The position numbers and the translations under genes are program-made. Positions 6,428-34,726 of a stretch of DNA of 37,138 nucleotides are shown here, one piece after another. This stretch comes from Candidatus Saliniplasma halalkaliphilum (GTDB lineage Archaea; Thermoplasmatota; Thermoplasmata; Halarchaeoplasmatales; Halarchaeoplasmataceae): assembly GCA_019594235.1 (NCBI GenBank), contig JAFDTG010000002.1, forward strand, positions 1-37,138, written 5' to 3'. Numbering within the stretch: position 1 is the stretch's first letter; the number at the start of each line of letters is the position of its first letter. A model generated the notes under the pieces. The model had not been told where the DNA came from and ran no database searches. It saw only the letters and a program-made list of their open reading frames with translations.

Positions 6428-6428
6428 C

Positions 6429-20752: not shown

Positions 20753-21856
20753 ATGACAAGTTCAAAGGTTTACTTTTCCGATCTATCCTCGGGAAGTAAA
20801 GAAAATAATTTGATAAACAGAATAGGACGATTATTCAAGAAAGCTAGTGAAGGTTTAGAATACGAAAAAGATGACCTCGTTGCACTCAAATTACATTTCG
20901 GTGAGAAAGGTATAGATACGTTCCTCAGACCCGTTCAGGTAGAACCTATCATCAAAGCGGTAAGAGATGCCGGTGGTAAGCCATTCCTGGCGGATTCTAA
21001 TACACTCTACTCAGGCAGCAGATCCAATGCCGTTGATCATCACAAGACCGCACAGGAGAACGGATGGGTAAGGCCAGTAGTCAGTGCTCCGGTAGTGATC
21101 GCTGATGGACTACACGGCAATGAATTTTATAAAGTTGAAATCGACGGGAAACATTTCGATGAAGTCAAGATCGGTGCCGGATTCTTTCAATGCGATGGTA
21201 TCGTAGGTGTTTCACATTTCAAAGGCCATGGTATGACCGGATTCGGAGGTACTCTAAAAAATCTCGGAATGGGTTGTGCTTCTCGTGCCGGGAAGTTGAT
21301 GATGCATTACAACGTTGAACCTGAAGTCGATATCGACGAGTGTATCGGATGTGGAAAGTGTGCTATCTGGTGCCCAGTAGAAGCGATAGAAGTTGAACAG
21401 TATGCTGAGATCGATTTAGATAAGTGTATCGGATGCGGTGAATGCAGGATCGTCTGTCCAGAAGGTGCGATCCAGGTGAAGGATTCCTCCTCAAATTTTG
21501 AGATCCAAGAAAAGATCGCCGAGTTCGCCCACGGCTCATTATTGGATAAATATGATAAATCACTGTTTTTCAATTTCGTAGTGGATGTTACACCAGAATG
21601 TGATTGTCCTCCGTGGAGAAAGTATCCGATGGTACCTGATATAGGTATAATCGCTTCAAAAGATCCGGTCGCGGTAGATCAGGCGGCTTTTGATCTAGTG
21701 AAAGAAGAAAAAGGTCGGGAATACGGTGCTGGAATCGATAAGTTTGCTAAAGAACACGATGTCGACCCGACTGCACAGTTAAAACATGGTGAGAAGATAG
21801 GTCTCGGAACCCGTGAATATGAACTTATAGATATCTCCGATGTTAGTGGTGAATAG
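20753..21856 (+). CDS. DUF362 domain protein with an inserted 2x[4Fe-4S] ferredoxin domain
   Basis: The N-terminus SKVYFSDL...LVALKLHFGEKG...RPV is typical of DUF362. There are two CxxCxxCxxxCP motifs (CIGCGKCAIWCPVEAI and CIGCGECRIVCPEGAI). Confidence 0.75.
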   Translation: MTSSKVYFSDLSSGSKENNLINRIGRLFKKASEGLEYEKDDLVALKLHFGEKGIDTFLRPVQVEPIIKAVRDAGGKPFLADSNTLYSGSRSNAVDHHKTAQENGWVRPVVSAPVVIADGLHGNEFYKVEIDGKHFDEVKIGAGFFQCDGIVGVSHFKGHGMTGFGGTLKNLGMGCASRAGKLMMHYNVEPEVDIDECIGCGKCAIWCPVEAIEVEQYAEIDLDKCIGCGECRIVCPEGAIQVKDSSSNFEIQEKIAEFAHGSLLDKYDKSLFFNFVVDVTPECDCPPWRKYPMVPDIGIIASKDPVAVDQAAFDLVKEEKGREYGAGIDKFAKEHDVDPTAQLKHGEKIGLGTREYELIDISDVSGE

Positions 21857-22806: not shown

Positions 22807-23202
22807 TTAAATTTCAAATTCCTTTTTTATTTTATCTATTAGTTCGTCAAAGCTCTCATTTCCATAGATGCTATTGTATACATTCAAGAAACCGAGGACC
22901 ATATCTTTTGCATCATCTTCAAGATTCTTTATCTCTGTTTTTCTCTCTTCTAGGGTCTCTTCACCTTTATCCGTTAAACTATAATATTTTCTATCTTCTG
23001 GGCCTTGCTCAGCCCGTTCTATGAGACCCTTTTTTTCCATCCTGTTCAACGCGCCATATACAGTGCCGTAACTAGGATTCCAATGTCCGTTAGATATCTC
23101 TTTCAATCTCTTGATGATCTCATATCCGTAAGTCGCCCCTTCCTCTTTCATCGTTTTAAATATTAGATAGCTAATAAGCTCACTAGGCAGCCTTTTTTGC
23201 AT
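22807..23202 (-). CDS. PadR family transcriptional regulator (module 1)
   Basis: GATYGYEIIKRLKEISNGHWNPSYGTVYGALNRMEKKGLIE is the canonical PadR winged-helix signature. It is divergent from permease pair 1. Confidence 0.88.
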   Translation of the reverse strand: MQKRLPSELISYLIFKTMKEEGATYGYEIIKRLKEISNGHWNPSYGTVYGALNRMEKKGLIERAEQGPEDRKYYSLTDKGEETLEERKTEIKNLEDDAKDMVLGFLNVYNSIYGNESFDELIDKIKKEFEI

Positions 23203-23275
23203 CTTTATTCCTGGAATTGGATAGATGATGAGATTATTTGGTCTTTTGGGAAAAGTATTATATATCGTACCGCAA

Positions 23276-23292
23276 TACTACGCAACGTAATA
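23276..23292. promoter_or_regulatory. Imperfect 7-3-7 inverted repeat (TACTACG-CAA-CGTAATA); candidate PadR operator over the predicted TSS/5' end of permease pair 1
   Basis: 6/7 arm complementarity. It lies 10-26 nt upstream of ATG 23302, downstream of a TATA-like ttatatat (23258-23265), and abuts the GGTG Shine-Dalgarno site (23293-23296). Confidence 0.35.
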
Positions 23293-23301
23293 GGTGTAAA
23301 G

Positions 23302-23784
23302 ATGAACATAACCGCTATCGGACTCATAATATTGGCCATTTCTTTATTGATATGGTCCTTTACTAAAGATAAAGAGAAAACGATAAAAGGTTTGAACGTG
23401 GCGAAAAACATGTTCAAAGGTATCGCTGTAGAGATAATATCTATATTGGCTCTTATAGGACTGTTTTTAACGCTGGTTCCTCCCGGGACTATAAGGTCTG
23501 TATTAGGTGATACCTCTGTTATAGAGGCCACTTTTATCTCAGCAGCTTTCGGTACCATAACATTGATACCTGCATTTGTGGCGTTTCCCCTTGCTTCTTC
23601 TTTGGTGGATGAGGGAGCTCATCTAGTTTCAATGGCAGCTTTCATCACAACCCTTACAATGGTCGGTTTCATAACGGCACCGATAGAGATCGAATATTTT
23701 GGTAAAAAATTCACTTTAGTAAGAAATGTACTTAGCTTCCTAGCAGCCATCTTGATCTCACTTGGTATGGGGTTGATATTATGA
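23302..23784 (+). CDS. Split permease subunit A1 (COG0701 / PF03773 'predicted permease' family, half-size)
   Basis: 160 aa from ATG 23302 (Shine-Dalgarno GGTG). It is a clear paralogue of 29502-29984, also 160 aa. Shared blocks: IPAFVAFPLASSL versus IPALIAFPLAASM, AAFITTLTMVGFIT versus AAFITTLTMIGIVT, and GKKFTLVRNVLSF versus GKKFALLRNGLSF. The track start at 23197 adds an implausible non-membrane extension that overlaps PadR. Confidence 0.7.
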   Translation: MNITAIGLIILAISLLIWSFTKDKEKTIKGLNVAKNMFKGIAVEIISILALIGLFLTLVPPGTIRSVLGDTSVIEATFISAAFGTITLIPAFVAFPLASSLVDEGAHLVSMAAFITTLTMVGFITAPIEIEYFGKKFTLVRNVLSFLAAILISLGMGLIL

Positions 23785-24500
23785 AATTTAGATTGGAAAC
23801 GATAGTTAAATTTTTCAAAGATAATAAGATAGCGGCTTTCACTATATTCGCTTATGTCGTTGTTTTTGTATATTCTCCAAATCTAGGTATCGACAGTTTA
23901 AAAATGACGGCATCTTACTTTTTAGAGATGCTGGAGATATTACCGGCTGTTTTTATAGTCATGGGCATGGTTGAAGTTTGGGTATCTCGAGAAACGATAA
24001 TGGGAATATTCGGTAAAGGATCTGGAATTAAGGGTAGATTCGCTTCGGTTTTGATAGGTTCTTTCTCAGCCGGACCAATATATGCAGCTTTTCCCGTCTG
24101 TTTTACGCTGTTGAAAAAAGGCTCATCGGTCTCAAACATCGTGATAATACTGAGCGCATGGGCCGTGGTCAAAGCACCGATGTTGATAGTTGAAACTCAA
24201 TTCATGGGATTGTCCTTCATGTTAGTAAGGTACATATTCACCGTACCGGCGATAATCATGATAGGGATCATCACTGGTAAGATTATCAGTAAGGAATACG
24301 TTATAAAAAATTCAAGTAAGGATGGCTTACTAGTTGAAAGGATAGATGAATTATTACCCGGCCATAACTGTGGTGCTTGTGGATACGGTTCATGCAGGGA
24401 GACTGCCGAGCAGATCGCTGATGGAGACGAGGAACCGGATGTTTGCGTTCCATTGGAAGAGGAAAAGACTATCAGGGAACTGTTAGAAACCTGTTCCTGA
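23781..24500 (+). CDS. Split permease subunit B1 with a C-terminal RnfB-type Cys4 (putative [4Fe-4S]) domain
   Basis: ATGA overlap with A1. It is a paralogue of 28963-29505 (ILPAV..MG, G.GSG.KG, GPIYAAFP/GPLYVAFP, KKGxxxSNIVxxLSAWA). It has an extra tail of about 55 aa: IDELLPGHNCGACGYGSCRETAEQIADGDEEPDVCVP, with Cys spacing C-x2-C-x4-C-x16-C. Confidence 0.7.
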   Translation: MKFRLETIVKFFKDNKIAAFTIFAYVVVFVYSPNLGIDSLKMTASYFLEMLEILPAVFIVMGMVEVWVSRETIMGIFGKGSGIKGRFASVLIGSFSAGPIYAAFPVCFTLLKKGSSVSNIVIILSAWAVVKAPMLIVETQFMGLSFMLVRYIFTVPAIIMIGIITGKIISKEYVIKNSSKDGLLVERIDELLPGHNCGACGYGSCRETAEQIADGDEEPDVCVPLEEEKTIRELLETCS

Positions 24501-24656
24501 TCTTCTTCCGTCTTTTCGTCAATCAGCCTTTTCCATAAGAGCTTCTAAGAGATCCATCACACCTACATCCCTAGCGGTCCTTTTCAAGTATTCCTTGTCC
24601 ATGTCCTCCTGGCGTGTGATTATACTCAAAACGTCTTCAAGGTCCTGTTCGCATTT

Positions 24657-25226
24657 TTGCTTTATATAAACAAACTCCAGTTATGGATCGTAGTTTTCAT
24701 CATCGGTGCCGTTGCTTCCATCGGTTTAGGAAGGTTCTACTGTGGTTGGATTTGTCCTATGGGGTCATTATCAAGGCCGATCATCTGGTTGAAAGATAAA
24801 TTGTCTTTGGGCGATATGGGTGTTCCGGATATATTGAGATCAAAGAAACTCCGGTATTCGATAGTGCTGATATTTTTCGGTACGATGATCGTTCTAAGAA
24901 TTTTAGGTATGGAACTGCCAGTACTGCTCATCATAACTGTGATAGGTGTGGCCTTCATGACGGTCTTCGACGAGGAGTTATTTCATAAGTACTTATGTCC
25001 GTATGGGACCATACTGAGCGTTACCTCGAAACCTTCGAGATACGTGATGAGAGTAGATACCGAAGAGTGTATCGGATGTGGTAGATGTCAGAGCGTATGT
25101 CCAACCGATACCATAGACACGTTGGATTCGGGGAAAAGACAGATTATCGATGGAGAATGCCTCAAATGCTTCAAGTGCCAGGATGTCTGTCCCGCTGACT
25201 GTATAGGATACAGTAAAAAAGAGTAA
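24657..25226 (+). CDS. Membrane-bound polyferredoxin, NapH/MauN-like (CxxxCP membrane motif plus 2x[4Fe-4S])
   Basis: RFYCGWICPMGSL and YLCPYGTILS are membrane-proximal motifs. The C-terminal part has CIGCGRCQSVCPTDTI and CLKCFKCQDVCPADCI. There is no in-frame ATG before the first motif, so the TTG at 24657 is only the track's guess. Confidence 0.65.
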   Translation: MLYINKLQLWIVVFIIGAVASIGLGRFYCGWICPMGSLSRPIIWLKDKLSLGDMGVPDILRSKKLRYSIVLIFFGTMIVLRILGMELPVLLIITVIGVAFMTVFDEELFHKYLCPYGTILSVTSKPSRYVMRVDTEECIGCGRCQSVCPTDTIDTLDSGKRQIIDGECLKCFKCQDVCPADCIGYSKKE

Positions 25227-25246
25227 TTGGATTTACTTTTAACCGA

Positions 25247-25651
25247 TCATTCATAGCTCTGATATAGAAGTATCGTTACAGCTACCGCAGCAAACAGATC
25301 CGGGAGAAACGTGAACGGTCCCAAACCTACTCCGTGCTTGAAGCCCAGTATAAGTGGTATGAAAGGATTGGAGAAAACGGCATATAGTAGAAGAGCAAAG
25401 CTGAAAATTAAAAGGCCGAGTGTGAATCTATTGGGCATCTCCCAGTATATAGACAGGTAGTTCCAGAGCAGAACAGCCAGTAGGATGAGGGTAAAGGAAG
25501 AGACGAACACTTTGATCCCCAGAAAAATTTCGAAATACATACGGTAAGTCCTAGTCGGTACTGAAACGGTCTTCAAAAATAGTAGAGTAAGCAGTACGCT
25601 TATCAATCCACCGATACCTAGTACGAGCATTAACTTTTTTTTCTTGTCCAT
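25247..25651 (-). CDS. Hypothetical 4-TM membrane protein, translationally coupled to the upstream wHTH regulator
   Basis: 134 aa from ATG 25651. AGGTGAT lies 4 nt upstream, inside the end of the regulator gene, and the regulator stop TAA (25653-25655) is 1 nt away. It has four hydrophobic helices. Confidence 0.6.
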   Translation of the reverse strand: MDKKKKLMLVLGIGGLISVLLTLLFLKTVSVPTRTYRMYFEIFLGIKVFVSSFTLILLAVLLWNYLSIYWEMPNRFTLGLLIFSFALLLYAVFSNPFIPLILGFKHGVGLGPFTFLPDLFAAVAVTILLYQSYE

Positions 25652-25652
25652 C

Positions 25653-25946
25653 TTAATCACCTTTCTTAGATTTTTTCATTATCTCATCCAATATATCAAG
25701 GCTGTCTTCCATCTGGTCAGTGAGAAAGTAGGTTTTTCCATACCCCTCTCCCATAGTGGTCAAAACGTGGTTTTCTAATAATAATTCAAGGTGGTGTTTA
25801 ACGGTCTTGTAATCAAGATCTAATTTTTTAGCTATCTGGTTCGCGTTCATCGGTTTTTCTTTCACAGCTTTTATTATACGGAGGCGGTTCTTTCCTCCTC
25901 TGGTACCTGCGATCAACCACCATAGGACCTTTCTCATCTGAACCAT
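25653..25946 (-). CDS. Small winged-helix (ArsR/HTH_24-like) transcriptional regulator
   Basis: 97 aa. LIAGTRGGKNRLRIIKAVKEKPMNANQIAKKLDLDYKTVKHHLELLLENHVL is an HTH signature. A TATA-like atttatt lies about 24 nt upstream of the ATG with no Shine-Dalgarno site, so it is probably leaderless with its own promoter. Confidence 0.75.
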   Translation of the reverse strand: MVQMRKVLWWLIAGTRGGKNRLRIIKAVKEKPMNANQIAKKLDLDYKTVKHHLELLLENHVLTTMGEGYGKTYFLTDQMEDSLDILDEIMKKSKKGD

Positions 25947-26030
25947 TATCTGTTAAATGCATCAAAGGTCAATAAATCTTCTGATAAATTGAGAAAAGGG
26001 TTTAGGAGAGGGGGACATCCTTTAACTGTC

Positions 26031-26429
26031 CTACGGACATTCGCCTCTCTGGTGCATATCACCGCGTCCTTGTTTCATATGTCCTCTGTGTTGTTGCATG
26101 TTTCCGTCTAGTTGGGGAAGTTCAGCCCCATAGTCCTCTACCATATTTCTAACCGTATCTCTGATCTCTTGCTGACTGGACCCGTTCTCTCTCATGGATA
26201 TCACTGTATCTATTATTTCCTGTTTCTGTTCATCTGTCAGATTCAGTCTATCGAGCATCCTTAATTTGGGTTCTTCAGTACATTCTCCATCGGAACGTAT
26301 GGTCTCTGTATCGGAGATACTTCGTTCCATGAAATCACCACTGTTATCGCTGGCCATGGATAGCCCAATCGCCCCTATCAATAATACAGCACCGAGGACG
26401 ACCCCTATCATTCCTATCTTCTTGTTCAT
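26031..26429 (-). CDS. Secreted or membrane-anchored LTxxQ-motif protein (Spy/CpxP/ZraP-like) with a His/Met/Cys-rich C-terminus
   Basis: From ATG 26429 (GGTG Shine-Dalgarno 6 nt upstream) the N-terminus MNKKIGMIGVVLGAVLLIGAIGLSMA is a signal or anchor. LNLTDEQKQEI is encoded at 26226-26240 (LTDEQ). The C-terminus is NMQQHRGHMKQGRGDMHQRGECP, and a GEC motif occurs twice. The track start at 26438 is a GTG. Confidence 0.6.
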   Translation of the reverse strand: MNKKIGMIGVVLGAVLLIGAIGLSMASDNSGDFMERSISDTETIRSDGECTEEPKLRMLDRLNLTDEQKQEIIDTVISMRENGSSQQEIRDTVRNMVEDYGAELPQLDGNMQQHRGHMKQGRGDMHQRGECP

Positions 26430-26460
26430 CTTTGACACCTATGGATATCACTACCATTGA

Positions 26461-26517
26461 TATTTATATTAGTTTGCCGAATCAATTAACCAATTAAACC
26501 CGATTTAGACCCAATTT
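26461..26517 (-). promoter_or_regulatory. Promoter with an upstream 20-nt direct-repeat element (copy 1), in front of the LTxxQ gene
   Basis: The minus strand reads AAATTGGGTCTAAATCGGGT (26498-26517), then 19 nt, then GGCAAA (26473-26478), then cta, then ATATAAATA (26461-26469). The ATG lies 31 nt further on. The 20-mer is identical to 28932-28951 and has the same 19-nt spacing to GGCAAA. Confidence 0.55.
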
Positions 26518-26565
26518 TGCTCTTTTTTTAAGAGCTATAGAAGGTGGTTATAATCGACAGCCTAT

Positions 26566-27096
26566 TCAAATCCTTAAAGCTTTGAACACACTATAAAACA
26601 AGTTGGTCAATATTACCGCCAGAACTATCACTCCTAGGGAGATCAGCAGTGACGAAACGTCCCCAACCGGTTTGGGTTCTACAGATAACTCTTTACTCGC
26701 AGAACTTTCAGGCAGCATCTCGTCATTGTACTTCAAAACAGCGCTTACATTGTGAATACCCGCTTCTGCATCCCACGAGATCTCGTATGTATTCGACTCA
26801 CCAGCTTCCAGGGCGATACCTGATACGTTCCCGATCTCCATGTTATCGACCAAGTAAACCAATGTGAAGTTCTGTACCGGAACTGACCCGTTGTTTCGAA
26901 CAGTGGCGTTGATAGTAATCTCGTCATCTTCCAAAGGCTCATCGTTTGAAAACTCGAGCTTCTCTACTTTGATGTCCGGCCCAAAGGATGGACCTTGCCC
27001 ACCGGACTGACCTTCCACGATGGGGGTGATGAGCAAACTCATAAACAATACAAGAGCGAACAAGAGTCCTAGCTTAGCGGCTCTATCTGGCATCAT
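26566..27096 (-). CDS. CARDB-domain cell-surface protein with signal peptide and C-terminal TM anchor
   Basis: Signal LGLLFALVLFMSLLITPIVEG. A CARDB-like block follows: ITINATVRNNGSVPVQNFTLVYLVDNMEIGNVSGIALEAGESNTYEISWDAEAGIHNVSA. The C-terminal TM is SSLLISLGVIVLAVILTNLFYSVF. There is an ATGA overlap with the ABC-2 permease. Confidence 0.7.
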   Translation of the reverse strand: MMPDRAAKLGLLFALVLFMSLLITPIVEGQSGGQGPSFGPDIKVEKLEFSNDEPLEDDEITINATVRNNGSVPVQNFTLVYLVDNMEIGNVSGIALEAGESNTYEISWDAEAGIHNVSAVLKYNDEMLPESSASKELSVEPKPVGDVSSLLISLGVIVLAVILTNLFYSVFKALRI

Positions 27097-27911
27097 TCTC
27101 CTCTCCTCCTGTTAGCCAAGAAAAGCCCGAGCAGGAATAATATTATCGTATATCCCAGCATCACCATCAGGCCAGTATAGAAATCGGGAGCGAAAGTGGC
27201 CTCGAACCTATCGCCCGGTCCAAAACCAGAGGTCTGGGCTACGCCGAAAAAGTCAGTGATCAAACCCCCGTAGTATGTTATGATGAACCACGGTTCTATC
27301 TCCACCATTTTCATAACCTGTTCCGTAATAGGCATTATCATCATGAGTGAAAAGAAGCCCAATAGGGTGGAGGTTATAGCCCCTTTGAGTATACTGCTGA
27401 AGAAAAAGATAAGGCTCACTGCTCCACACATGTAGAGTATCGAGAACAGATATGATTTGAGAAATTCTGTAGATATTTCGCTCAATCCATACACGTACTG
27501 TATCTCCAAAGCCGTTACCAAATAATATATGGTTAAAACTGAAAGTGTCGAAACTACAGACGCGATGTATTTTCCAACAAAAATACTGTTATGGTCTTGC
27601 GGAGTTGGAAACAATATCAAACCCGTCCTGTTCTCGAATTCTAAAGAGATTATGTCCCCAGCGAAGAGTGCTCCGGAGATGATGATCAAAAGATTAGCGA
27701 AACCTAAGTTGAGTTGTGCGAAATCTCCAGCGGTTTCTGCCAACCCTATATCCCATATAGTTGGGATGAGATAGAATACGGACGCTAATGCTATCGCCAT
27801 AAGAACAGCCATCTGTATCCTGTTCCGTCTGTAATGTTTAAGTAGCTCGAATTTAGTCGATAAAAATGTGTCGTAAATATCGCTCTTCACTTTGTTCATC
27901 ACTTTCGTCAT
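27093..27911 (-). CDS. ABC-2 type transporter permease (NosY/COG1277-like)
   Basis: 272 aa with about 6 TM helices. ATGA overlaps occur on both sides, with the ATPase and the CARDB gene. Confidence 0.7.
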   Translation of the reverse strand: MTKVMNKVKSDIYDTFLSTKFELLKHYRRNRIQMAVLMAIALASVFYLIPTIWDIGLAETAGDFAQLNLGFANLLIIISGALFAGDIISLEFENRTGLILFPTPQDHNSIFVGKYIASVVSTLSVLTIYYLVTALEIQYVYGLSEISTEFLKSYLFSILYMCGAVSLIFFFSSILKGAITSTLLGFFSLMMIMPITEQVMKMVEIEPWFIITYYGGLITDFFGVAQTSGFGPGDRFEATFAPDFYTGLMVMLGYTIILFLLGLFLANRRRGE

Positions 27912-28879
27912 AGGTTTCCCCCCTTCTTATTAACAAGAGATATATAGAAATCTTCAAGGTCTTGCTTTCCACTTGAATATGAGATGACATCGAAACCCTC
28001 TTTGATCATGTTCGATAAAATCTCAGCTTGATTACTTTTGTCTTTGCTGTTGTATATAGTTGCAGTGTTTCCCTCTACCTTTACTTTGTTTATACTATTC
28101 AAGGAACTCAATTTTTTCCTTTCTTCTTTTGACAAGGGATTCAAGAATTCTACGGTTATCTTCTTATGCTGAGAATCACCAGCAAATTTGTCTATATCAT
28201 CGTAGGCCATCACTTCTCCATTGAAGAGGAATATCACTTTATCACATGTTTTACTCACTTCTTCAAGAAGGTGTGAACTCAAAAAGATCGTTATCTCCTT
28301 TTCTTTCAAATTGCGTATGAGCTCCCGCACCTCTTTTATACCCTCTGGATCAAGACCCATCACCGGTTCATCCAGTATCAATATCTCGGGAGAAGGCAGC
28401 AGTGCTAAACCTATGGCCAATCTCCTCCTCATACCCGTACTGAACTCCTCTATCTTTTTATGTTCCCAATCCTTTAGTTTCACAGTTCTTAAAACCTGTT
28501 TTATCTTTTTTTTGATTCTATCTGTACCCATCCGGTAGACCCTCCCATAATGAGTCAGGAGTTCGTGAGGAGTTAGATAGTCATACATCCCCGGTACCTC
28601 GATGAGGGCCCCGACATAACTCAAAGCGTGGGTCGGATCTTTAAACACATCTATTCCGTTGATATAAGCGCTGCCTGAGGTGGGTGATAATAAGTTGGTC
28701 AGTAGTTTGATCGTGGTTGTTTTACCTGCTCCATTGGGTCCTAGATAACCTACAACATCTCCTTTTTTGACTTTAAAAGAGACTCCTTTCAGTGCTGTTA
28801 GGTCTCCATATCTTTTAACAAGGTTTTCAACCTTGATCGCATTTCCATTATCCGATAGCCTATTCATCATTATACCCAT
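27908..28879 (-). CDS. ABC transporter ATP-binding protein (ABC-2 subfamily) with a C-terminal accessory domain
   Basis: Walker A GYLGPNGAGKTTT, signature FSTGMRRRLAIG, Walker B ILILDEPVMGLD and H-loop SSHLLEE. The track start at 28966 adds 29 aa that are unlike ABC N-termini and that contain a promoter-like element. I place the start at M30 (28879), or at M33/M34 (28870/28867). Confidence 0.85.
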   Translation of the reverse strand: MGIMMNRLSDNGNAIKVENLVKRYGDLTALKGVSFKVKKGDVVGYLGPNGAGKTTTIKLLTNLLSPTSGSAYINGIDVFKDPTHALSYVGALIEVPGMYDYLTPHELLTHYGRVYRMGTDRIKKKIKQVLRTVKLKDWEHKKIEEFSTGMRRRLAIGLALLPSPEILILDEPVMGLDPEGIKEVRELIRNLKEKEITIFLSSHLLEEVSKTCDKVIFLFNGEVMAYDDIDKFAGDSQHKKITVEFLNPLSKEERKKLSSLNSINKVKVEGNTATIYNSKDKSNQAEILSNMIKEGFDVISYSSGKQDLEDFYISLVNKKGGNL

Positions 28880-28894
28880 CTTCACCCATCTTAC

Positions 28895-28951
28895 TTTTAA
28901 TATCAATTTGCCAAATTTTAAGGAGAGTTTCACCCGATTTAGACCCAATTT
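28895..28951 (-). promoter_or_regulatory. Promoter with an upstream 20-nt direct-repeat element (copy 2), in front of the ABC-2/CARDB operon
   Basis: The minus strand reads AAATTGGGTCTAAATCGGGT (28932-28951), then 19 nt, then GGCAAA (28907-28912), then ttg, then ATATTAAAA (28895-28903). Candidate ATGs lie 15, 24 and 27 nt further on. Confidence 0.5.
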
Positions 28952-28962
28952 CGATATCCTTT

Positions 28963-29505
28963 TCATCCATCTATTACACCATTAGTTCTTTTCATCATCC
29001 ACTCTATAACAAATCCCATCAATCCAACGAATATTATTGTAAGCGACAACCTTGCCAGCATGAACTCAGGACCTAAAAACTGAAGTTCCACCATCTCCTG
29101 AGGTATCTTGATACACGCCCAGGCCGATAGGAACACTACGATGTTGGATATCCGAGCACCTTTCTTGATCAAAGTAGATGCCATCGGAAACGCGACGTAC
29201 AGGGGTCCAGTGGGTAAAGTACCGAATAAAATCGCTAGAAAAAATCCTTTAGAACCAGAAGCTTTACCGAGATGCTTCACAACTGTTTCTTCAGGTATGT
29301 AAACGGAGAACAGCCCCATCAACACCATCACCGCAGGAAGTATGAATGCCATCTCCGTCAGGTAATCCATAGAAGTGTTAAAAACCGCTCCTCGTCTATC
29401 AGGGTAGATGGAGACCAGGATCAGTGCAACGATGAACATCCCAGCCAATAACATCCAATTCCGGATCATCTTCTTCTTATTTTCCTTCTTTTTCTCCTCC
29501 TTCAC
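28963..29505 (-). CDS. Split permease subunit B2 (COG0701 / PF03773 family), lacking the Fe-S tail of B1
   Basis: Paralogue of 23781-24500 (see that entry). The GTG start overlaps the A2 stop by 4 nt. An alternative ATG at 29469 (MIRNWML...) exists. Confidence 0.7.
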   Translation of the reverse strand: MKEEKKKENKKKMIRNWMLLAGMFIVALILVSIYPDRRGAVFNTSMDYLTEMAFILPAVMVLMGLFSVYIPEETVVKHLGKASGSKGFFLAILFGTLPTGPLYVAFPMASTLIKKGARISNIVVFLSAWACIKIPQEMVELQFLGPEFMLARLSLTIIFVGLMGFVIEWMMKRTNGVIDG

Positions 29506-29984
29506 AGTATCACCCCTATCAATATAGCGATGATGATAGCTATAATGAAACTTAGACCATTTCTTAGAAGAGCAAACTTCTTGCCTAGTATTTTTATCTC
29601 CATGGGCAGGGTGACTATCCCTATCATAGTCAGTGTAGTTATGAAGGCGGCCACGGCCATAACTGTAGCACCGCTTTCAAGCATCGAAGCAGCAAGTGGA
29701 AATGCTATAAGAGCGGGTATATGCAGCACAGCACCCACCGCCCCAACAAGTAAAACACCTAGGATGCCCGACTGCTCACCTACGAATCGTGATATCTCCG
29801 CTGGAGGTACGAACCCCAGCATCAATCCTATTATTATTATGATAATGAGTATCGTCGGTAAAATACCGAATAACGATTTAGCTGCCTTTTTCAACGATTT
29901 AACCGCTTTATCTCTATCCCTATAGAAGCCATAGATCAAGCAGACCAGAGCGAATGCATTGATTAATATGGCTGTGATACTCAT
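29502..29984 (-). CDS. Split permease subunit A2 (COG0701 / PF03773 family)
   Basis: 160 aa, paralogue of A1. There is an ATGA overlap with the upstream cupin gene, and GGTGGA lies upstream of the ATG. Confidence 0.7.
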   Translation of the reverse strand: MSITAILINAFALVCLIYGFYRDRDKAVKSLKKAAKSLFGILPTILIIIIIIGLMLGFVPPAEISRFVGEQSGILGVLLVGAVGAVLHIPALIAFPLAASMLESGATVMAVAAFITTLTMIGIVTLPMEIKILGKKFALLRNGLSFIIAIIIAILIGVIL

Positions 29985-30271
29985 CCGTCCACCTTTTCGA
30001 CCTGTATTCCCAGTAGTTTCACTCCTTTCTCCGTTTTCATCGAATACAAACCGGGTTCAGAGATCAAGCATTCACCTTCTTCCAAAGTCGCTTTATCATC
30101 ATCCACTGTGATCTCAACTTCGCCTTCCAGTACTATAAATATCACGTGTGACGACATATCGCAGGGCGGTATCTTATCACCCTTCGACAGCTGTATGTGT
30201 CTCGCTTTGAACTCGTCTCGTTCGTAGATCAGTTTCTTGCCTTCTATCTCTTTCAAATTATACGTTTCCAT
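29981..30271 (-). CDS. Small cupin-domain protein
   Basis: 96 aa from ATG 30271 (GGAGGTGA 5 nt upstream). The beta-barrel pattern HIQLSKGDKIPPCDMSSHVIFIVLEGEVEITVDD...EGECLISEPG resembles cupin_2. Confidence 0.6.
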   Translation of the reverse strand: METYNLKEIEGKKLIYERDEFKARHIQLSKGDKIPPCDMSSHVIFIVLEGEVEITVDDDKATLEEGECLISEPGLYSMKTEKGVKLLGIQVEKVDG

Positions 30272-30650
30272 CTTTTTCACCTCCAAATTCTTTCTCATAA
30301 AAACTGGTCATCTTCTCCATCATCCTTTTACGCTCCTTGATCATCTCGAGCCAGCTCTTCAGATGTCCCCTCCCCTCTTCGGTTATACGGTAAACTCTTT
30401 TATCCGGGCCGGTGTCACTTTTCTTCCAATCTGACCTAAGTAGTCCTTTCTCCTCCATCCTTCTCAGTGTCGTGTACATCGTTCCAGATTTGATCTTGTG
30501 TCTCCCCTCGCTCAGTTCCTCGATCCTTTTGATGACACCATATCCGTGCATGGGTTTCTCACAGACCACACGCAGTATCAGGAACTGCAGCCATCTACCT
30601 TCTGGGTAACCATGAGGATGTTTACATTTCTGTTTCGATTTTTTACACAT
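30258..30650 (-). CDS. PadR family transcriptional regulator (module 2) with a Cys/His-containing N-terminal extension
   Basis: PMHGYGVIKRIEELSEGRHKIKSGTMYTTLRRMEEKGLL is the PadR signature. From ATG 30650 the N-terminus is MCKKSKQKCKHPHG. The track start at 30668 is a TTG 6 codons upstream. Confidence 0.85.
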   Translation of the reverse strand: MCKKSKQKCKHPHGYPEGRWLQFLILRVVCEKPMHGYGVIKRIEELSEGRHKIKSGTMYTTLRRMEEKGLLRSDWKKSDTGPDKRVYRITEEGRGHLKSWLEMIKERKRMMEKMTSFYEKEFGGEKDGNV

Positions 30651-30871
30651 CGATATACTATGTAACAATGTTAGATATATCGTTTTCCCTAGGATGAAAA
30701 ACTAAGAGACCAAATAATCAGGACGAAATAAACTAAGCTCATCGTAAATAAATCGTTTAATTTTTGAAAACCCATTAAAATCATAGAGAACGATTTGAAC
30801 TTTGATATTTCATATCGAAATTTTAATTAGTCTGTTATAGTATAGTGTTATATTCTTTAGGAGGGTTAAAC

Positions 30872-32575
30872 TTGAAAAAAGAAATATTTCACGAACACGA
30901 AATTTTGGTAGTTGGCGGGGGATTATCTGGTTTGAGGGCTTCTATCGAAGCTTTGAGAAGCGGTAAGGATGTAGCCGTTATATCAAAAGTTCATCCGTTA
31001 CGTTCTCACAGTGTTGCTGCTCAAGGGGGTATCAATGCAGCTTTAGGAAACACTCCAGGTAGAGGCGAAGATCACTGGGAAGACCATGCCTTCGATACTG
31101 TGAAAGGATCAGCTTATCTCGCGGATCAGGATGCAGTGGATATCCTTTGTAAAAAAGCTCCAGAAGCGGTTATTGAACTTGAGCATATGGGAACGGTTTT
31201 CTCACGGTTTGAGAACGGTAAGATCGCCCAAAGACCATTCGGTGGAGCAGGCTTTCCCAGGACATGTTACGCCGCCGATAGGACCGGTCATAATTTACTA
31301 CATACACTGTATGAACAGTCTATTTCTGGTAAGATGAAATTCTATGACGAGTATTTTGTTACATCTCTGATCAAAGAAAATGGAACATGTGTAGGTTGTA
31401 TCGCATTGGATCTAAGGGAAGGTACACTGCATGCCTTCTCTGGGACTGTTATACTGGCAACTGGAGGCTTTGGAAGGATATACAACCGTTCTACCAATGC
31501 ATTGATAAATACAGGAGACGGGGCATTTCTAGCTTATGAAATAGGTGCGGGATTGGAGGATATGGAATTCATCCAGTTTCATCCCACCACTCTTTACGGT
31601 TCCAACATATTGATCACAGAAGGTGCTAGAGGTGAGGGAGGTTATCTTAAGAACAGTGAAGGTGAGAGGTTCATGAAAGATTACGCCCCCGATGCCATGG
31701 AACTAGCACCCAGGGATATAGTAGCTAGAGCGATAATGACCGAAGTGAACGAAGGGAGAGGTATCGACGATGAATACGTACATCTGGATTTGACTCACTT
31801 AGGTGAAGAAAAGATAAAAGAGCGGTTACCGGGTATCAGACAGATCGCCATGGATTTTGCCGGTGTTGATCCCATAAAAGAACCTATACCGGTTCAGCCC
31901 GGACAGCATTATTCCATGGGAGGTATTTTGGTCGATAACGGTTGTGAAACCGATGTACCAGGACTCTATGCCACCGGCGAGTGCTCATGTGTTAGCGTTC
32001 ACGGTGCCAATCGATTGGGAGGGAACTCACTTCTAGAAACAGTCGTTTTCGGTAAGATCGCCGGTAAAATGGCTTCAGAAGAAGTGAACGGTAAAGAACT
32101 CAATGAATCCCTCTTTATAGATGCCATCGAAAAAGATAGCAAATTGATAGATTCTATCGTTGGGAAAAAAGAGGGTATCCTCTACAGCGAGATATTGAAA
32201 GATCTGAGGGAAACCATGTTCCAGCACTTCGGAGTGTTCAGAGAGGGTGAGACGATGGAAGAGGGACTTGATAAGATCAGGCGGTTAAAAGAAAAATTTG
32301 AAGATGTGTACGTTGAATCCGATGATAAAAAGTTCAACCAGGCCTTGATCAGAACTTTAGAGTTAAGGAACATGCTTCTTATCGCTGAAGCTGTAGCTAT
32401 GGGGGCTGTCAGAAGGGAAGAGAGCAGAGGTTCACATTACAGGACCGACTTCACCGAACGAAGAGATGAACAATATCTGAAACACACAGTTGTTAGAAAG
32501 GGTGTTGAAGGACCAGAATTGGAGTATTCTCCCGTAAATCTAGATAGATTTGACGTCAAGGAGCGTGAGTACTGA
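30872..32575 (+). CDS. sdhA: Succinate dehydrogenase / fumarate reductase flavoprotein subunit
   Basis: VVGGGLSGLRAS binds the FAD dinucleotide. RSHSVAAQGG contains the His used for covalent FAD in SdhA/FrdA. Also present: HPTT, APRD, HYSMGG and RGSHYR. The TTG at 30872 follows GGAGG with 7-nt spacing. The track start is a GTG at 30845. Confidence 0.9.
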   Translation: MKKEIFHEHEILVVGGGLSGLRASIEALRSGKDVAVISKVHPLRSHSVAAQGGINAALGNTPGRGEDHWEDHAFDTVKGSAYLADQDAVDILCKKAPEAVIELEHMGTVFSRFENGKIAQRPFGGAGFPRTCYAADRTGHNLLHTLYEQSISGKMKFYDEYFVTSLIKENGTCVGCIALDLREGTLHAFSGTVILATGGFGRIYNRSTNALINTGDGAFLAYEIGAGLEDMEFIQFHPTTLYGSNILITEGARGEGGYLKNSEGERFMKDYAPDAMELAPRDIVARAIMTEVNEGRGIDDEYVHLDLTHLGEEKIKERLPGIRQIAMDFAGVDPIKEPIPVQPGQHYSMGGILVDNGCETDVPGLYATGECSCVSVHGANRLGGNSLLETVVFGKIAGKMASEEVNGKELNESLFIDAIEKDSKLIDSIVGKKEGILYSEILKDLRETMFQHFGVFREGETMEEGLDKIRRLKEKFEDVYVESDDKKFNQALIRTLELRNMLLIAEAVAMGAVRREESRGSHYRTDFTERRDEQYLKHTVVRKGVEGPELEYSPVNLDRFDVKEREY

Positions 32576-33318
32576 TGAAACTCAAAGTATTCAGATATGA
32601 TGGTGATGAATCACATTACGACGAATTCGAAGTACCTCACAAGCCTGGACAGACCGTACTTGACGCCCTATTCTACATCCAAGAGAATTTGGATGATTCA
32701 CTCTCATTCCGTTATTCCTGCCGAGGAGCTGTGTGCGGTTCATGCGCCATGTTGATAAACAAAGTTCCACGTTTGGCCTGTAGAACACAGGTAAAAACTC
32801 TAGTAGAGGGTGAAGACAAGGTGAAGATAAAGCACTGTCCTGCACTTGATAAGGGTGATGAGATCGAAGACGGGGCCGTACTTGTAGAACCTCTACCTCA
32901 TCTCCCTGTTGAGAAAGATTTGATAGTGGATCAGGACAAATTCTTCGAATATTATCGGGAGATGGAACCGATGTTGAAGACTAAAAGTGAGGTTCCGGGA
33001 GAAGAGTATGAGATGGATCCCGAAGATGTTAGTGAGTTGGAGGATTATACAAACTGCATACTATGCGCAGCCTGTTTCGGGGCATGTCCGGTGGACGGTG
33101 AAAATGTAAATTACCGCGGACCAGCAGCACTTGCCAAATTGTACAGATTCCATATCGATCCCAGGGATAAAAGTGAACGGCTTAGTTTAGCCGACCATGA
33201 AGATGGATGGTGGGCTTGTGAGTTCCACACCAACTGTCAGAAGGTGTGCCCCAAAAACGTACCTCCGAATATAGCCATCGGGAAGGCAAGGTCAAAGCTC
33301 GAGAAGGAGGATGGATGA
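32575..33318 (+). CDS. sdhB: Succinate dehydrogenase / fumarate reductase iron-sulfur subunit
   Basis: SCRGAVCGSCAMLIN is the 2Fe-2S region. CILCAACFGACP and CEFHTNCQKVCPKNV are the 4Fe-4S and 3Fe-4S motifs. The TGATG junction overlaps sdhA by 1 nt. Confidence 0.9.
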   Translation: MKLKVFRYDGDESHYDEFEVPHKPGQTVLDALFYIQENLDDSLSFRYSCRGAVCGSCAMLINKVPRLACRTQVKTLVEGEDKVKIKHCPALDKGDEIEDGAVLVEPLPHLPVEKDLIVDQDKFFEYYREMEPMLKTKSEVPGEEYEMDPEDVSELEDYTNCILCAACFGACPVDGENVNYRGPAALAKLYRFHIDPRDKSERLSLADHEDGWWACEFHTNCQKVCPKNVPPNIAIGKARSKLEKEDG

Positions 33319-33319
33319 G

Positions 33320-34726
33320 ATGAGGAAAGAACTTGATTCGTTGGGAGAGAAAGAAGTTCCCGATGATGCTCTTTACGGTGTTCAAACTGTAAGGGCAGTG
33401 GAGAACTTCCCTGTAACGGGTCGAACCGCTTTTCCGGAGTTGATAGATTCTTACATTATTCTGAAAAAAGCCTGTGCGGAAGCTAATATGGAACTGGATA
33501 AACTGGACCCGAAAAAAGGTGAATACATCCTGGAAGCCTGTGAAAAATTGTATAGAAGTTCTTACGATGAATTCAAAGTCGATGTATTCCAGGCGGGAGC
33601 TGGTACATCTTTCAATATGAACGTTAACGAGGTCATAGCAAATAAAGCGTTGGAACTTGCCGGTAAAGAGAAAGGTGAGTATGATCACATACATCCCAAC
33701 GACCACGTAAACATGTCCCAGTCCAGCAACGATACTTATCCTACTGCATCACATCTCGCGATAATCGATATCTCTCAAGACCTCGTGGAAGACTTAAAAG
33801 GATTGAAAAAAGATTTTCAAGATAAGGGTAAGGAGTTCTCAGATATCGCTAAATCTGGTAGAACACATCTGATGGATGCCACTCCGGTGACATTAGGTGA
33901 TGAACTTTTAGGGTATGCTAGAACTATCGAGAGGTCCTTTAAGAATTTAGAAACTTCTTTGAAAGGACTGTATGAACTCCCTATAGGTGGTACGGCAACA
34001 GGTACCGGTGTTAACACACCTGAAGGATTCAGGGATAAGGTCGTTAAAAAATTGTCATCAGAATATGGCTTTGAATTTGTAAGCGCTGAGAACAGTTTCG
34101 AAATGTTACAGAGTCGGATGCCTATGGGTAATTTCATGGGGGCTTTGAAGAATTTAGCGCTTGAACTCATAAGGATTGCTAACGATCTAAGATTACTTTC
34201 CAGTGGACCGAAGACCGGGCTGTCGGAGATAAAACTTCCTGCGGTTCAACCGGGTTCTTCCATAATGCCGGGAAAAGTTAATCCAGTCATGGCTGAGTGT
34301 TTGAATATGATATCCTTCCAGATCGTTGGAAACTCTACTACCGTTGATATGGCTGTTCAAGCAGGTCAAATAGAGTTGAACGTGATGACACCGGTTATCA
34401 CCTACAACATAATGGAATCCGTATGGATGTTGAATAATTTCCTACCTATTTTTAGGGGGAGATGTGTTCAGGGGATATCTGCTAACAGATCTAAATGTAA
34501 GGAACATTTTGAATCTAGTGTGAGTTTAGCTACGCTATTGAGTCCTAAGATCGGATATATGAAAGCTGCAGAATTAGCTAAAGAATCCAATGAAAAAGAT
34601 ATTCCAGTACCTAAGTTGGCTGTTAAGAAAGGTATCGTTACGGAGCAAGAGGCGGAAGAACTCTTCTCGACTAAGAATGCTGCTAAAAGTAAGTATGATA
34701 CCAGTCGTGGTGAAGAACGGCTTTGA
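33320..34726 (+). CDS. Class II fumarase / aspartate ammonia-lyase family lyase; motif pattern closer to aspartase
   Basis: Family signature GSSIMPGKVNP. The aspartase-like blocks are YGVQTVRAVENFPVTG, VDVFQAGAGTSFNMNVNEV, KGEY..HPNDHVN, NDLRLLSSGP, VNPVMAE and LNVMTPVI. The fumarase-like blocks are SQSSND and GRTHLMDATP. The ATG at 33320 is 8 nt from AAGGAGGA and 2 nt after the sdhB stop. The track ATG at 33311 is an alternative. Confidence 0.85.
   Translation: MRKELDSLGEKEVPDDALYGVQTVRAVENFPVTGRTAFPELIDSYIILKKACAEANMELDKLDPKKGEYILEACEKLYRSSYDEFKVDVFQAGAGTSFNMNVNEVIANKALELAGKEKGEYDHIHPNDHVNMSQSSNDTYPTASHLAIIDISQDLVEDLKGLKKDFQDKGKEFSDIAKSGRTHLMDATPVTLGDELLGYARTIERSFKNLETSLKGLYELPIGGTATGTGVNTPEGFRDKVVKKLSSEYGFEFVSAENSFEMLQSRMPMGNFMGALKNLALELIRIANDLRLLSSGPKTGLSEIKLPAVQPGSSIMPGKVNPVMAECLNMISFQIVGNSTTVDMAVQAGQIELNVMTPVITYNIMESVWMLNNFLPIFRGRCVQGISANRSKCKEHFESSVSLATLLSPKIGYMKAAELAKESNEKDIPVPKLAVKKGIVTEQEAEELFSTKNAAKSKYDTSRGEERL

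Follow-up and report, generated by a model that had tools for sequence, protein, structure and literature searches.

Two split PF03773 permease modules with adjacent PadR genes in a soda-lake Thermoplasmatota archaeon

PF03773 (ArsP_1) is a common Pfam family of permeases for which no structure has been solved and whose annotation is plain 'permease'. Among the described members, the CSC motif is the strongest common feature of SO_0444 and SaoE, and ArsP is classified in TCDB's Organo-Arsenical Exporter (ArsP) family (Haft, 10.1101/2022.07.06.499078). The family also exists in a split form, in which two adjacent genes, A and B, each code for a half-permease. No study of these split pairs was found in the literature searched, their sole mentions being one remark and one table row in Rodionov et al. 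2005 (PMC1274295). In that work CTC00896-CTC00898 of Clostridium tetani, which code for an HcpR2 paralogue, a permease and a 'permease with ferredoxin domain', are a predicted member of the HcpR regulon, with a predicted site of the motif GTAAC-N4-GTTAC as found before hcp and frdX. The same literature holds no description of split inverted pairs, of two subfamilies, of alternative Fe-S domains, of the gene cassette or of the candidate PadR operators reported below, and the RefSeq names of the proteins are only 'permease' or '(Fe-S)-binding protein'. Here we describe two split pairs, A1/B1 and A2/B2, each accompanied by a gene for a PadR regulator, in a chromosomal DNA stretch of 37,138 nucleotides (contig JAFDTG010000002.1; hereafter the window) from a Thermoplasmatota archaeon of soda-lake sediment.

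The joint explanation that best accounts for the permeases, their regulation, the redox features and the possible role is that the region consists of two independent operons and not of one system; we assign it a probability of roughly 0.55. Module 1 would be formed by PadR1, transcribed divergently from A1, B1 and a NapH-like membrane polyferredoxin gene, and would encode a type I split PF03773 permease. Module 2 would comprise PadR2, a small cupin, A2 and B2, which overlap tightly on a probably leaderless transcript, and would encode a type II split permease. Taken separately, the structural and regulatory description of the two split-permease operons is held with high confidence.

Two subfamilies of half-permeases and their predicted topology

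Both B proteins score above the gathering score (GA, the curated cut-off of Pfam) of ArsP_1, which is 32.3 bits, and both A proteins score just below it (Table 1). A is homologous to B (A1 against B2, E = 1e-17), homologues of A carry precomputed PF03773 assignments, and A and B each align to the first repeat of the PF03773 model. The membership in this family proposed in the initial annotation is upheld for B by score and for A, which is marginal, by its homology to B. The two modules share 45% protein identity between A1 and A2 (E = 3.5e-34), 41% between B1 and B2 (E = 3.9e-36) and 31.5% between PadR1 and PadR2 (E = 8e-14), with no significant similarity between the modules at the DNA level.

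B2 is 60-70% identical to the B proteins of Thermococcus, Kosmotoga and Archaeoglobaceae and only 41% identical to B1 of its own genome. The median identity of A1 is 54% to A proteins paired with a long B and 44% to those paired with a short B, the respective values for A2 being 41% and 66%. Since B2 is closer to distant B proteins than to B1, and A1 and A2 each go with their own type, two subfamilies are distinguished. Type I combines A (160 amino acids) with a B of ~240 amino acids that carries a C-terminal Fe-S domain. Type II combines A with a short B of ~180 amino acids that has a single invariant Cys, located in FLSAWACIKIPQE (Cys131 of B2); its mean column identity reaches 70% across archaea and bacteria. 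Judged from these identities, the two modules are members of two deep, ancient subfamilies and not recent paralogues. The divergence at the DNA level previously taken as a sign of an old and maintained duplication is real, but a local duplication is not its source. The equal length of A1 and A2, which had also been remarked upon, is correct and merely reflects the modal length of the family (1636 homologues of A1 found).

The A-type gene is present in at least 588 loci of a scan with one genome per GTDB species, and type II in at least 569 loci of a metagenome scan. A tblastn search against plasmids returned five records only, annotated as 'permease' or unannotated. A locus on the Peptoclostridium acidaminophilum plasmid EAL2_808p (L168) has a Crp/Fnr gene divergent from A and a short B (178 amino acids, no Fe-S domain), and adjoins genes of the selenium-dependent molybdenum cofactor (yqeB, XdhC) and an IS200/IS605 TnpB gene. 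Full-length PF03773 permeases (347-410 amino acids, with the CSC motif) adjoin or lie near split pairs in L151, L152, L165, L167, L088 and L051, so that split and unsplit forms coexist within one locus; L051 also has genes for ArsR, a polyferredoxin and a thioredoxin-like protein.

Lys and Arg residues were counted per loop over 97 A and 145 B sequences. Their mean number in loops 1 to 4 of A is 5.9, 1.0, 0.25 and 3.7; in B it is 4.8 at the amino terminus, 1.5, 3.7, 2.2 and 0.9 in loops 1 to 4, and 3.1 at the carboxyl terminus. This charge bias fits four transmembrane (TM) helices and one re-entrant hairpin per half, with the amino terminus outside in A and inside in B, and thus an antiparallel pair in which the Fe-S domain of B1 would be cytoplasmic. 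The homologous halves would accordingly insert in opposite orientations and would have to pair in order to rebuild the pseudo-symmetric fold of full-length PF03773 proteins. The AlphaFold2 model of B1 is confident, with a pLDDT of 90. Sequence and fold searches of the PDB retrieved no counterpart of its membrane part and matched only the Fe-S domain.

In B1 the four Cys of the PF04060 motif CX2CX4CX16-17C are C197, C200, C205 and C222, and the domain scores above the GA of 23 bits (Table 1). C197 and C200 are invariant, and at least 90% of the sequences keep C205 and C222. In the predicted model this carboxyl terminus domain superposes on the [4Fe-4S] domain of the corrinoid iron-sulfur protein (CFeSP; Foldseek probability 1.00 to 4djd_C and 2ycl_A; rmsd 2.2-2.5 Å), and at the sequence level it matches RnfB. 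All of the 120 best homologues of B1 combine PF03773 with PF04060; their hosts are Thermoplasmata, Hadarchaeota, Clostridia, Halanaerobiales, Thermotogota and Spirochaetota. In a sample of 66 A and 79 B open reading frames (ORFs) the PF04060 motif is found in 36 of the B ORFs. Three others, namely B2 of the window and those of L002 and L070, are short type II proteins, and there are a few truncated or frameshifted ORFs. Most of the remaining ones, mainly from Clostridia, feature at the same position a single-cluster ferredoxin domain (CX2CX2C...CP), and the C. tetani B protein scores on Pfam Fer4_13. On the sequences compared, the Fe-S domain is integral to type I. The presence of two unrelated electron-transfer domains at one position suggests that electron transfer, or at least Fe-S chemistry, is part of the function. 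Most likely, the electron donor of the [4Fe-4S] domain of type I B would be ferredoxin or else the neighbouring NapH-like polyferredoxin, and type I transport would be coupled to, or gated by, the redox state.

Conserved gene cassette and candidate operators

The neighbourhood of the pairs was surveyed in 167 loci from other genomes and metagenomes (80 genome loci for type I, 80 metagenome loci for type II and several contigs fetched by exact protein; single loci carry L numbers), whose ORFs were labelled by phmmer, clustering and Pfam. What recurs in them is a cassette in which A and B are joined by a regulator, a small cupin and a NapH-like polyferredoxin, the regulator being Crp/Fnr, TetR, PadR or ArsR according to the lineage. 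At type I loci a regulator lies within 1.5 kb of the pair in 66 of 80 cases (Crp/Fnr 46, TetR 14, PadR 7, all the latter in Thermoplasmata), a cupin of ~105 amino acids within the same distance in 25, and a Prismane-family gene within 8 kb in 12 (Hcp in bacteria, a 625-amino acid form in Thermoplasmata). Sequence clustering groups the cupins of 29 type I and 37 type II loci, and in 10 type I loci and 11 of type II a NapH-like polyferredoxin gene directly flanks the pair, after B or before A. For type II, shares refer to those 48 loci whose flank reaches 2 kb or more. The neighbours are a cupin (48%), a NapH-like polyferredoxin (23%), PadR (23%), an ArsR-like regulator with an amino terminal MC-x5-CC (21%), another ArsR (19%), an ABC ATPase (10%) and Thioredoxin_3 (8%).

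This census bears out the linkage of PadR genes to A/B pairs expected from the window: the type I cases are in Thermoplasmata, and for type II there are many cases, on unclassified metagenome contigs. PadR1 orthologues are divergent from type I pairs in L001, L002, L004-L008 and L081. The linkage to cupin and polyferredoxin genes likewise recurs. A typical bacterial cassette has a divergent Crp gene followed by A, B, polyferredoxin and cupin (L035, L057, L077), and in a typical archaeal type II cassette PadR is followed by A, B, a cupin, a polyferredoxin and a second cupin (L117, L119). In the window these accessory parts are distributed across the two modules. In L001, L002 and L007 module 1 is preceded by genes for the 625-amino acid Prismane protein, two hemerythrin-domain proteins, a 270-amino acid protein with 2x[4Fe-4S] and a His-type cupin, none of which is found in the window.

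The spacer between PadR1 and A1 is 99 nucleotides long. Within it the position of the candidate B recognition element (BRE) and TATA box of A1-B1 is conserved in 7 orthologous intergenic regions. The candidate PadR1 operator located downstream (Table 1) has the core TACG-N3-CGTA, which occurs once in the window. Five other Thermoplasmata loci feature at the same place two tandem copies of the 7-3-7 palindrome, ATACTACG-N3-CGTAGTAT and TATTACG-N3-CGTAATA. Upstream of PadR2, the palindrome ATGTAAC-N3-GTTACAT, matched once in the window, shows little or no variation among 7 independent type II loci. Its perfect form ATGTAAC-ATT-GTTACAT is found at the same position in L086, L117 and L132, and variants changed in spacer or arm are found in L081, L002 and L154. 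This conserved palindrome overlaps the TATA-like element and ends 9 nucleotides before the ATG at 30650, in support of the start assigned to PadR2 in the initial annotation and of a transcript that is probably leaderless. Each PadR dimer would most likely repress its own operon from its own 7-3-7 palindrome between TATA box and start.

Note that the PadR2 palindrome closely resembles the bacterial HcpR2 (Crp/Fnr) consensus GTAAC-N4-GTTAC (PMC1274295), from which it differs by one spacer base, the regulator family being a different one. An exact 13-mer, GATTATTTGGTCT, occurs only twice in the window, at 23232-23244 (+) and 30707-30719 (-), ~55-70 nucleotides upstream of the first ORF of each permease operon. 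Its core TTATTTG(G/T)(T/C)C is conserved in module 1 orthologues and is probably a promoter part of the divergent PadR1 gene. A common operator of both modules was rejected as the main explanation of the 13-mer: upstream of PadR2 it is not conserved in relatives, and its module 1 copy falls on the likely TATA/BRE of the divergent PadR1.

Genes of the modules and their surroundings

All 14 ORFs of the region were verified at the coordinates and strands previously given, apart from small errors, and ORF and Pfam checks confirmed the layout of both modules, with PadR1 divergent from the permease halves and PadR2, cupin, A2 and B2 co-directional (Table 1). Genes, domains and layout of the initial annotation therefore stand; some starts, one overlap and some family labels do not. 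The overlap concerns the A/B junctions, both described as ATGA. This is correct for A1/B1. B2 starts with the GTG at 29505 and the A2/B2 overlap is GTGA, the ATGA of module 2 being located at the cupin/A2 junction.

Table 1. Genes and candidate promoter elements of the two modules and of the segment between them (window coordinates; scores in bits)
Feature	Coordinates	Strand	Description
PadR1	22807..23202	-	short PadR, 131 amino acids, no Cys, divergent from A1; Pfam PadR 77 (GA 27)
Candidate archaeal BRE/TATA of A1-B1 operon	23248..23265	+	GGGAAAAG-TATTATATAT; read from sequence, putative promoter
Candidate PadR1 operator	23276..23292	+	TACTACG-CAA-CGTAATA, imperfect palindrome between TATA box and A1 start codon
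A1	23302..23784	+	type I half-permease, 160 amino acids, no Cys, predicted N-out/C-out; ArsP_1 28.9
B1	23781..24500	+	type I half-permease with PF04060 [4Fe-4S] domain, predicted cytoplasmic, N-in/C-in; ArsP_1 46.5, FeS 43.8
NapH-like membrane polyferredoxin	24657..25226	+	COG0348 type; Fer4_5 47 (CX3CP motifs) and 2x[4Fe-4S] dicluster; TTG start
ArsR-type winged helix-turn-helix (wHTH) and 4-TM protein	25247..25946	-	wHTH (25653-25946) overlapping 4-TM protein (25247-25660); HTH_5 35; separate two-gene unit
Small secreted/anchored protein	26031..26438	-	one LTxxQ motif, His/Met/Cys tail; LTXXQ sub-threshold; orthologue only in L081
CARDB surface protein	26566-27096	-	CARDB 35
ABC-2 permease	27093-27911	-	ABC2_membrane_4 33.9
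ABC ATPase	to ~28879 (ORF to 28966)	-	ABC_tran 96; 4-nucleotide overlaps join ATPase, ABC-2 permease and CARDB
B2	28963..29505	-	type II half-permease, 180 amino acids, no Fe-S domain; ArsP_1 49.9
A2	29502..29984	-	type II half-permease, 160 amino acids; ArsP_1 32.2
Small cupin	29981..30271	-	96 amino acids from Met10 (ORF to 30298); Cupin_2 28.5
PadR2	30258..30650	-	short PadR, 130 amino acids; PadR 79.6 (GA 27)
Candidate BRE/TATA overlapping candidate PadR2 operator	30660..30689	-	GGGAAAAC-GATATAT; palindrome conservation
Candidate PadR2 operator	30660-30676	-	ATCTAAC-ATT-GTTACAT; ends 9 nucleotides before ATG 30650; overlaps TATA-like element

Both regulators have the size and scores of short LmrR-like PadR proteins, a subtype of about 110-130 amino acids with a single carboxyl terminal helix, and there are 45 PadR matches in the PDB. 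PadR2 carries at its amino terminus a Cys/His tail, MC-x6-C-x-H-x-H-GYPEGRW, and has a further Cys in LRVVCE. The tail is kept in L002, L081, L086, L132 and L154, and orthologues show two Cys and several His before GYPE(G/R/K)RW. PadR structures of the PDB (LmrR, TM0937, Rv3488) align with PadR2 only from residue 17-25 on. PadR2 probably senses its signal through this conserved tail. ArsR-like regulators linked to type II pairs (L085-L087 and ~17 more, 20 loci in total) have an amino terminal Cys cluster, for example MCSKKKKCC, that echoes the PadR2 tail in a different regulator family. The cupin of module 2 most likely starts at Met10 (30271), giving 96 amino acids as in its orthologues. An alignment of 64 sequences shows that it has two conserved Cys (C46 and C77, ORF numbering) and lacks the usual His triad.

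The label 'NapH-like' given to the polyferredoxin is appropriate at the level of the COG0348/Fer4_5 architecture and not as orthology to NapH, the TIGR02163 (NapH/MauN) score being 77 bits against a cut-off of 213. The ORF, starting at TTG 24657, lacks the first TM helix of bacterial homologues and its 5' end is possibly truncated: an in-frame hydrophobic stretch is found upstream (window 24500-24700) without ATG, GTG or TTG. The L081 orthologue has only 113 amino acids and lies directly downstream of two inserted genes, for an 84-amino acid protein and a PIN_2 protein, which are probably a toxin-antitoxin pair. The polyferredoxin gene may be decaying in the lineage of the window.

Two family labels used for the genes between the modules were revised. 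The 'LTxxQ protein' does have one such motif and a His/Met/Cys tail, but its scores are below threshold for PF07813 (18.9 against GA 24.3 bits) and for the Spy equivalog (26.3 against 174 bits), and no relative was found in the PDB. The ABC-2 permease termed 'NosY-like' scores 22.3 bits on ABC2_membrane_2 (PF12679), below 27.2, and there are no nos genes in the window.

The closest protein matches of the window are in Thermoplasmatota metagenome-assembled genomes, one being Candidatus Natronoplasma, and the sequencing runs that hold the locus are soda-lake DNA metagenomes only, with no RNA run among them. No RNA genes were detected in the window by Rfam and tRNA scans. The remainder of the window codes for housekeeping and surface proteins. 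The latter include two adjoining giant proteins of 1347 and 1285 amino acids (2384-10286, -) with CarboxypepD_reg, Big_1 and macroglobulin-like repeats. Upstream of PadR1 is a gene for a DUF362 protein with two 4Fe-4S motifs (COG2006; 20753-21856, +). Divergent from PadR2 (30845-34726, +) are genes for a succinate dehydrogenase/fumarate reductase flavoprotein, an Fe-S subunit and a class II fumarase/aspartase-like lyase. L081 has two ABC_membrane exporters on the flank beyond PadR2, so that this flank is not conserved.

Possible role and relation to described systems

For type I, the Fe-S domain, the HcpR2 prediction with its motif and the Hcp-type neighbours point to a role in redox or nitrosative stress. 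The C. tetani genes CTC00896-CTC00898 correspond to locus L054 of the census. The motif GTAAC-N4-GTTAC, with at most one mismatch, is found within 300 nucleotides upstream of A in 8 bacterial loci, when ~2 are expected from the background rate of the loci. The predicted HcpR regulons of Geobacter (PMC1274295, Table S1) include COG1917 (cupin), COG0348 (polyferredoxin) and COG2006 (DUF362-ferredoxin). The features of an HcpR regulon member, namely a Crp/Fnr regulator of HcpR type with an upstream GTAAC-N4-GTTAC site, are seen in bacterial relatives such as L054, L044, L048 and L060; the regulators of the window are PadR proteins, and N3 is the spacer of its nearest motif. Prismane, hemerythrin, ferredoxin and cupin genes are found beside module 1 in Thermoplasmata relatives. 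The most likely role, which we put forward tentatively, would be the export of small redox-active or thiol-reactive toxic species under redox or nitrosative stress, coupled in type I to ferredoxin-level electrons or gated by them. The redox- or Cys/His-based sensing suggested initially is plausible in view of the B1 Fe-S domain, the PadR2 tail and the two cupin Cys.

Several observations weigh against this reading. Hcp linkage concerns only 11-15% of the loci, and the window has neither hcp nor a Crp regulator. The Fe-S domain could be a sensor and not an electron carrier. The doubtful 5' end of the polyferredoxin gene and its truncated L081 orthologue may mean that the protein is dispensable here. 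The heterodimer and the re-entrant hairpins are deduced from charge bias and from a monomer model.

Different activities can be envisaged for the pairs. They might be efflux pumps for thiophilic metals or metalloids like ArsP (methylarsenite), SO_0444 (Cu/Zn) and SaoE, with PadR2 as metal sensor. Membership in PF03773 agrees with this proposal, as do the Cys/His theme of module 2 (PadR2 tail, two cupin Cys, invariant B2 Cys), the Rv3488-type PadR among the PDB and NCBIfam matches, and a type II pair on a Thermococcus peptonophilus plasmid that adjoins an ArsR regulator and a heavy-metal P-type ATPase. However, the CSC/CxC motif of the first hairpin is absent from the four halves of the window, and of the sampled membrane parts none of the 66 from A and 2 of the 79 from B have CxC, whereas CSC is present in 7 of 8 ORFs of the full-length permease cluster from split-pair loci, the eighth being a 258-amino acid fragment. 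The NCBIfam equivalogs for ArsP, SO_0444 and SaoE give 19-21 bits to the window halves against cut-offs of 300-325, and type I regulators belong mostly to Crp/Fnr or TetR and not to the metal sensors. The analogy with metal(loid) efflux drawn in the initial annotation is weakened by these data and we consider it unlikely for the pairs at large, although, given the Cys theme of type II and the plasmid neighbours, a thiophilic metal or sulfur species stays a candidate for module 2. It is less likely still that the pairs are importers, or no transporters at all and serve as the membrane anchor and electron-entry module of a ferredoxin-dependent reductase together with the polyferredoxin and cupin. 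The fusion of two different electron-transfer domains at the same position of B, the recurrent NapH-like partners and the failure of PDB sequence and fold searches to retrieve a solved structure of this architecture would fit such a module. Yet the characterised PF03773 members are efflux permeases (10.1101/2022.07.06.499078 and established knowledge), type II pairs lack the Fe-S domain and often the polyferredoxin neighbour, and the conserved polar motifs in the re-entrant hairpins are typical of a substrate path.

A broader alternative to two independent operons would make the 14 genes a single functional unit, a stress island that deals with metals, metalloids or redox-active compounds and has a PadR/permease module at either end. 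It finds some backing in the closest relative, L081 (~90% amino acid identity), where the whole block is syntenic, in the strand shared by module 2 and the middle genes except the polyferredoxin, and in ABC-2 exporters beside type II pairs of a few unrelated loci (L083 of Kosmotoga, and L121, L138 and L155). The neighbourhood test nevertheless goes against it. In L002 (85% identity) the modules are ~2 kb apart, with three small unrelated ORFs in between and without the middle genes, and in L086 and L087 the PadR-cupin-A-B genes stand beside an MMPL gene and a separate group of PadR1-like, TetR and polyferredoxin genes. Homologues of the 4-TM, LTXXQ-like and CARDB proteins and of the ABC-2 permease are absent from the other 165 sampled loci and found only in L081, the sole locus where the wHTH/4-TM pair adjoins A/B. 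ABC ATPases are near A/B pairs in 7-10% of loci, not above expectation, and their permease partners belong to other ABC-2 families; an ABC-2 exporter as conserved type II partner was dropped at a census share of only 10%. The L081 orthologue indicates that the ABC ATPase most likely starts at ~28879, ~29 codons inside its ORF, and not at 28966. This correction leaves a gap of ~83 nucleotides after B2 and removes the translational coupling to B2. The confinement of the middle genes to L081 and the layout of L002 identify the block as a lineage-specific juxtaposition, and, on gene order, the six intervening genes belong to three unrelated units that were inserted in this lineage. The single island is thus very improbable. 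Two independent operons remain the preferred explanation, and from the initial interpretation PF03773 membership and the recurrent PadR, cupin and polyferredoxin links are retained, the island and the local duplication being abandoned. The pairs are a variant inside a known permease family and not a new kind of system.

The occurrence of a large share of PF03773 as two-gene inverted pairs, of which one subfamily carries an Fe-S domain, provides a testable model of a redox-linked transporter in anaerobes. In its widest form, which is doubtful at present, type I would be an undescribed class of redox-coupled membrane transporter: an inverted A/B heterodimer, whose cytoplasmic Fe-S domain would be obligatory, together with a small cupin and a polyferredoxin of NapH-like type. 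Independent recruitment would have brought two unrelated Fe-S domains to one position, low-potential electrons from ferredoxin would drive or gate transport, and the regulator of each lineage (HcpR-like Crp, TetR, PadR or ArsR) would wire the system to nitrosative or redox stress regulons. Such a system would be present in several hundred anaerobic species of bacteria and archaea at the least. The analysis also supplies names and candidate operators for two archaeal PadR regulons, and cautions that homology alone does not justify labelling split proteins as 'arsenical efflux' or 'Cu/Zn efflux'.

The closest described locus, CTC00896-CTC00898 of C. tetani, has the same type I A and B pair and a divergent regulator; it differs by its Crp/Fnr protein in place of PadR and by Fer4_13 in place of PF04060, and is known from a computational prediction that never described it as a split inverted pair or as a family. 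With RnfB and the amino terminal [4Fe-4S] domain of CFeSP, B1 shares the four-Cys motif of PF04060 and a structural match, and with NapH/CcoG-type proteins the polyferredoxin shares the Fer4_5 CX3CP motifs and the dicluster; here, however, these parts are fused to or partnered with a permease and not with a respiratory complex. The regulators resemble LmrR-type PadR repressors of an adjacent efflux transporter in size, fold class (PDB 3f8b and others), adjacency and a palindrome of the ATGT...ACAT type. They differ by the amino terminal Cys/His tail of PadR2, which is covered by no structure, by the 7-3-7 spacing of the candidate operators, by the archaeal promoter context and by a transporter that is not of the ABC type. 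The EmrE-like SMR pairs and the Fluc/CrcB pairs are likewise encoded by adjacent homologous genes with opposite Lys and Arg bias, but their fold and family are different and the halves described here have five hydrophobic segments including a re-entrant hairpin, so that the likeness is one of analogy only. ArsP, SO_0444 and SaoE belong to the same Pfam family, and each half of the split pairs aligns to one repeat of the full-length protein; the pairs are set apart from them by their two genes of opposite topology, by the lack of CSC/CxC and by the Fe-S domain carried on type I B.

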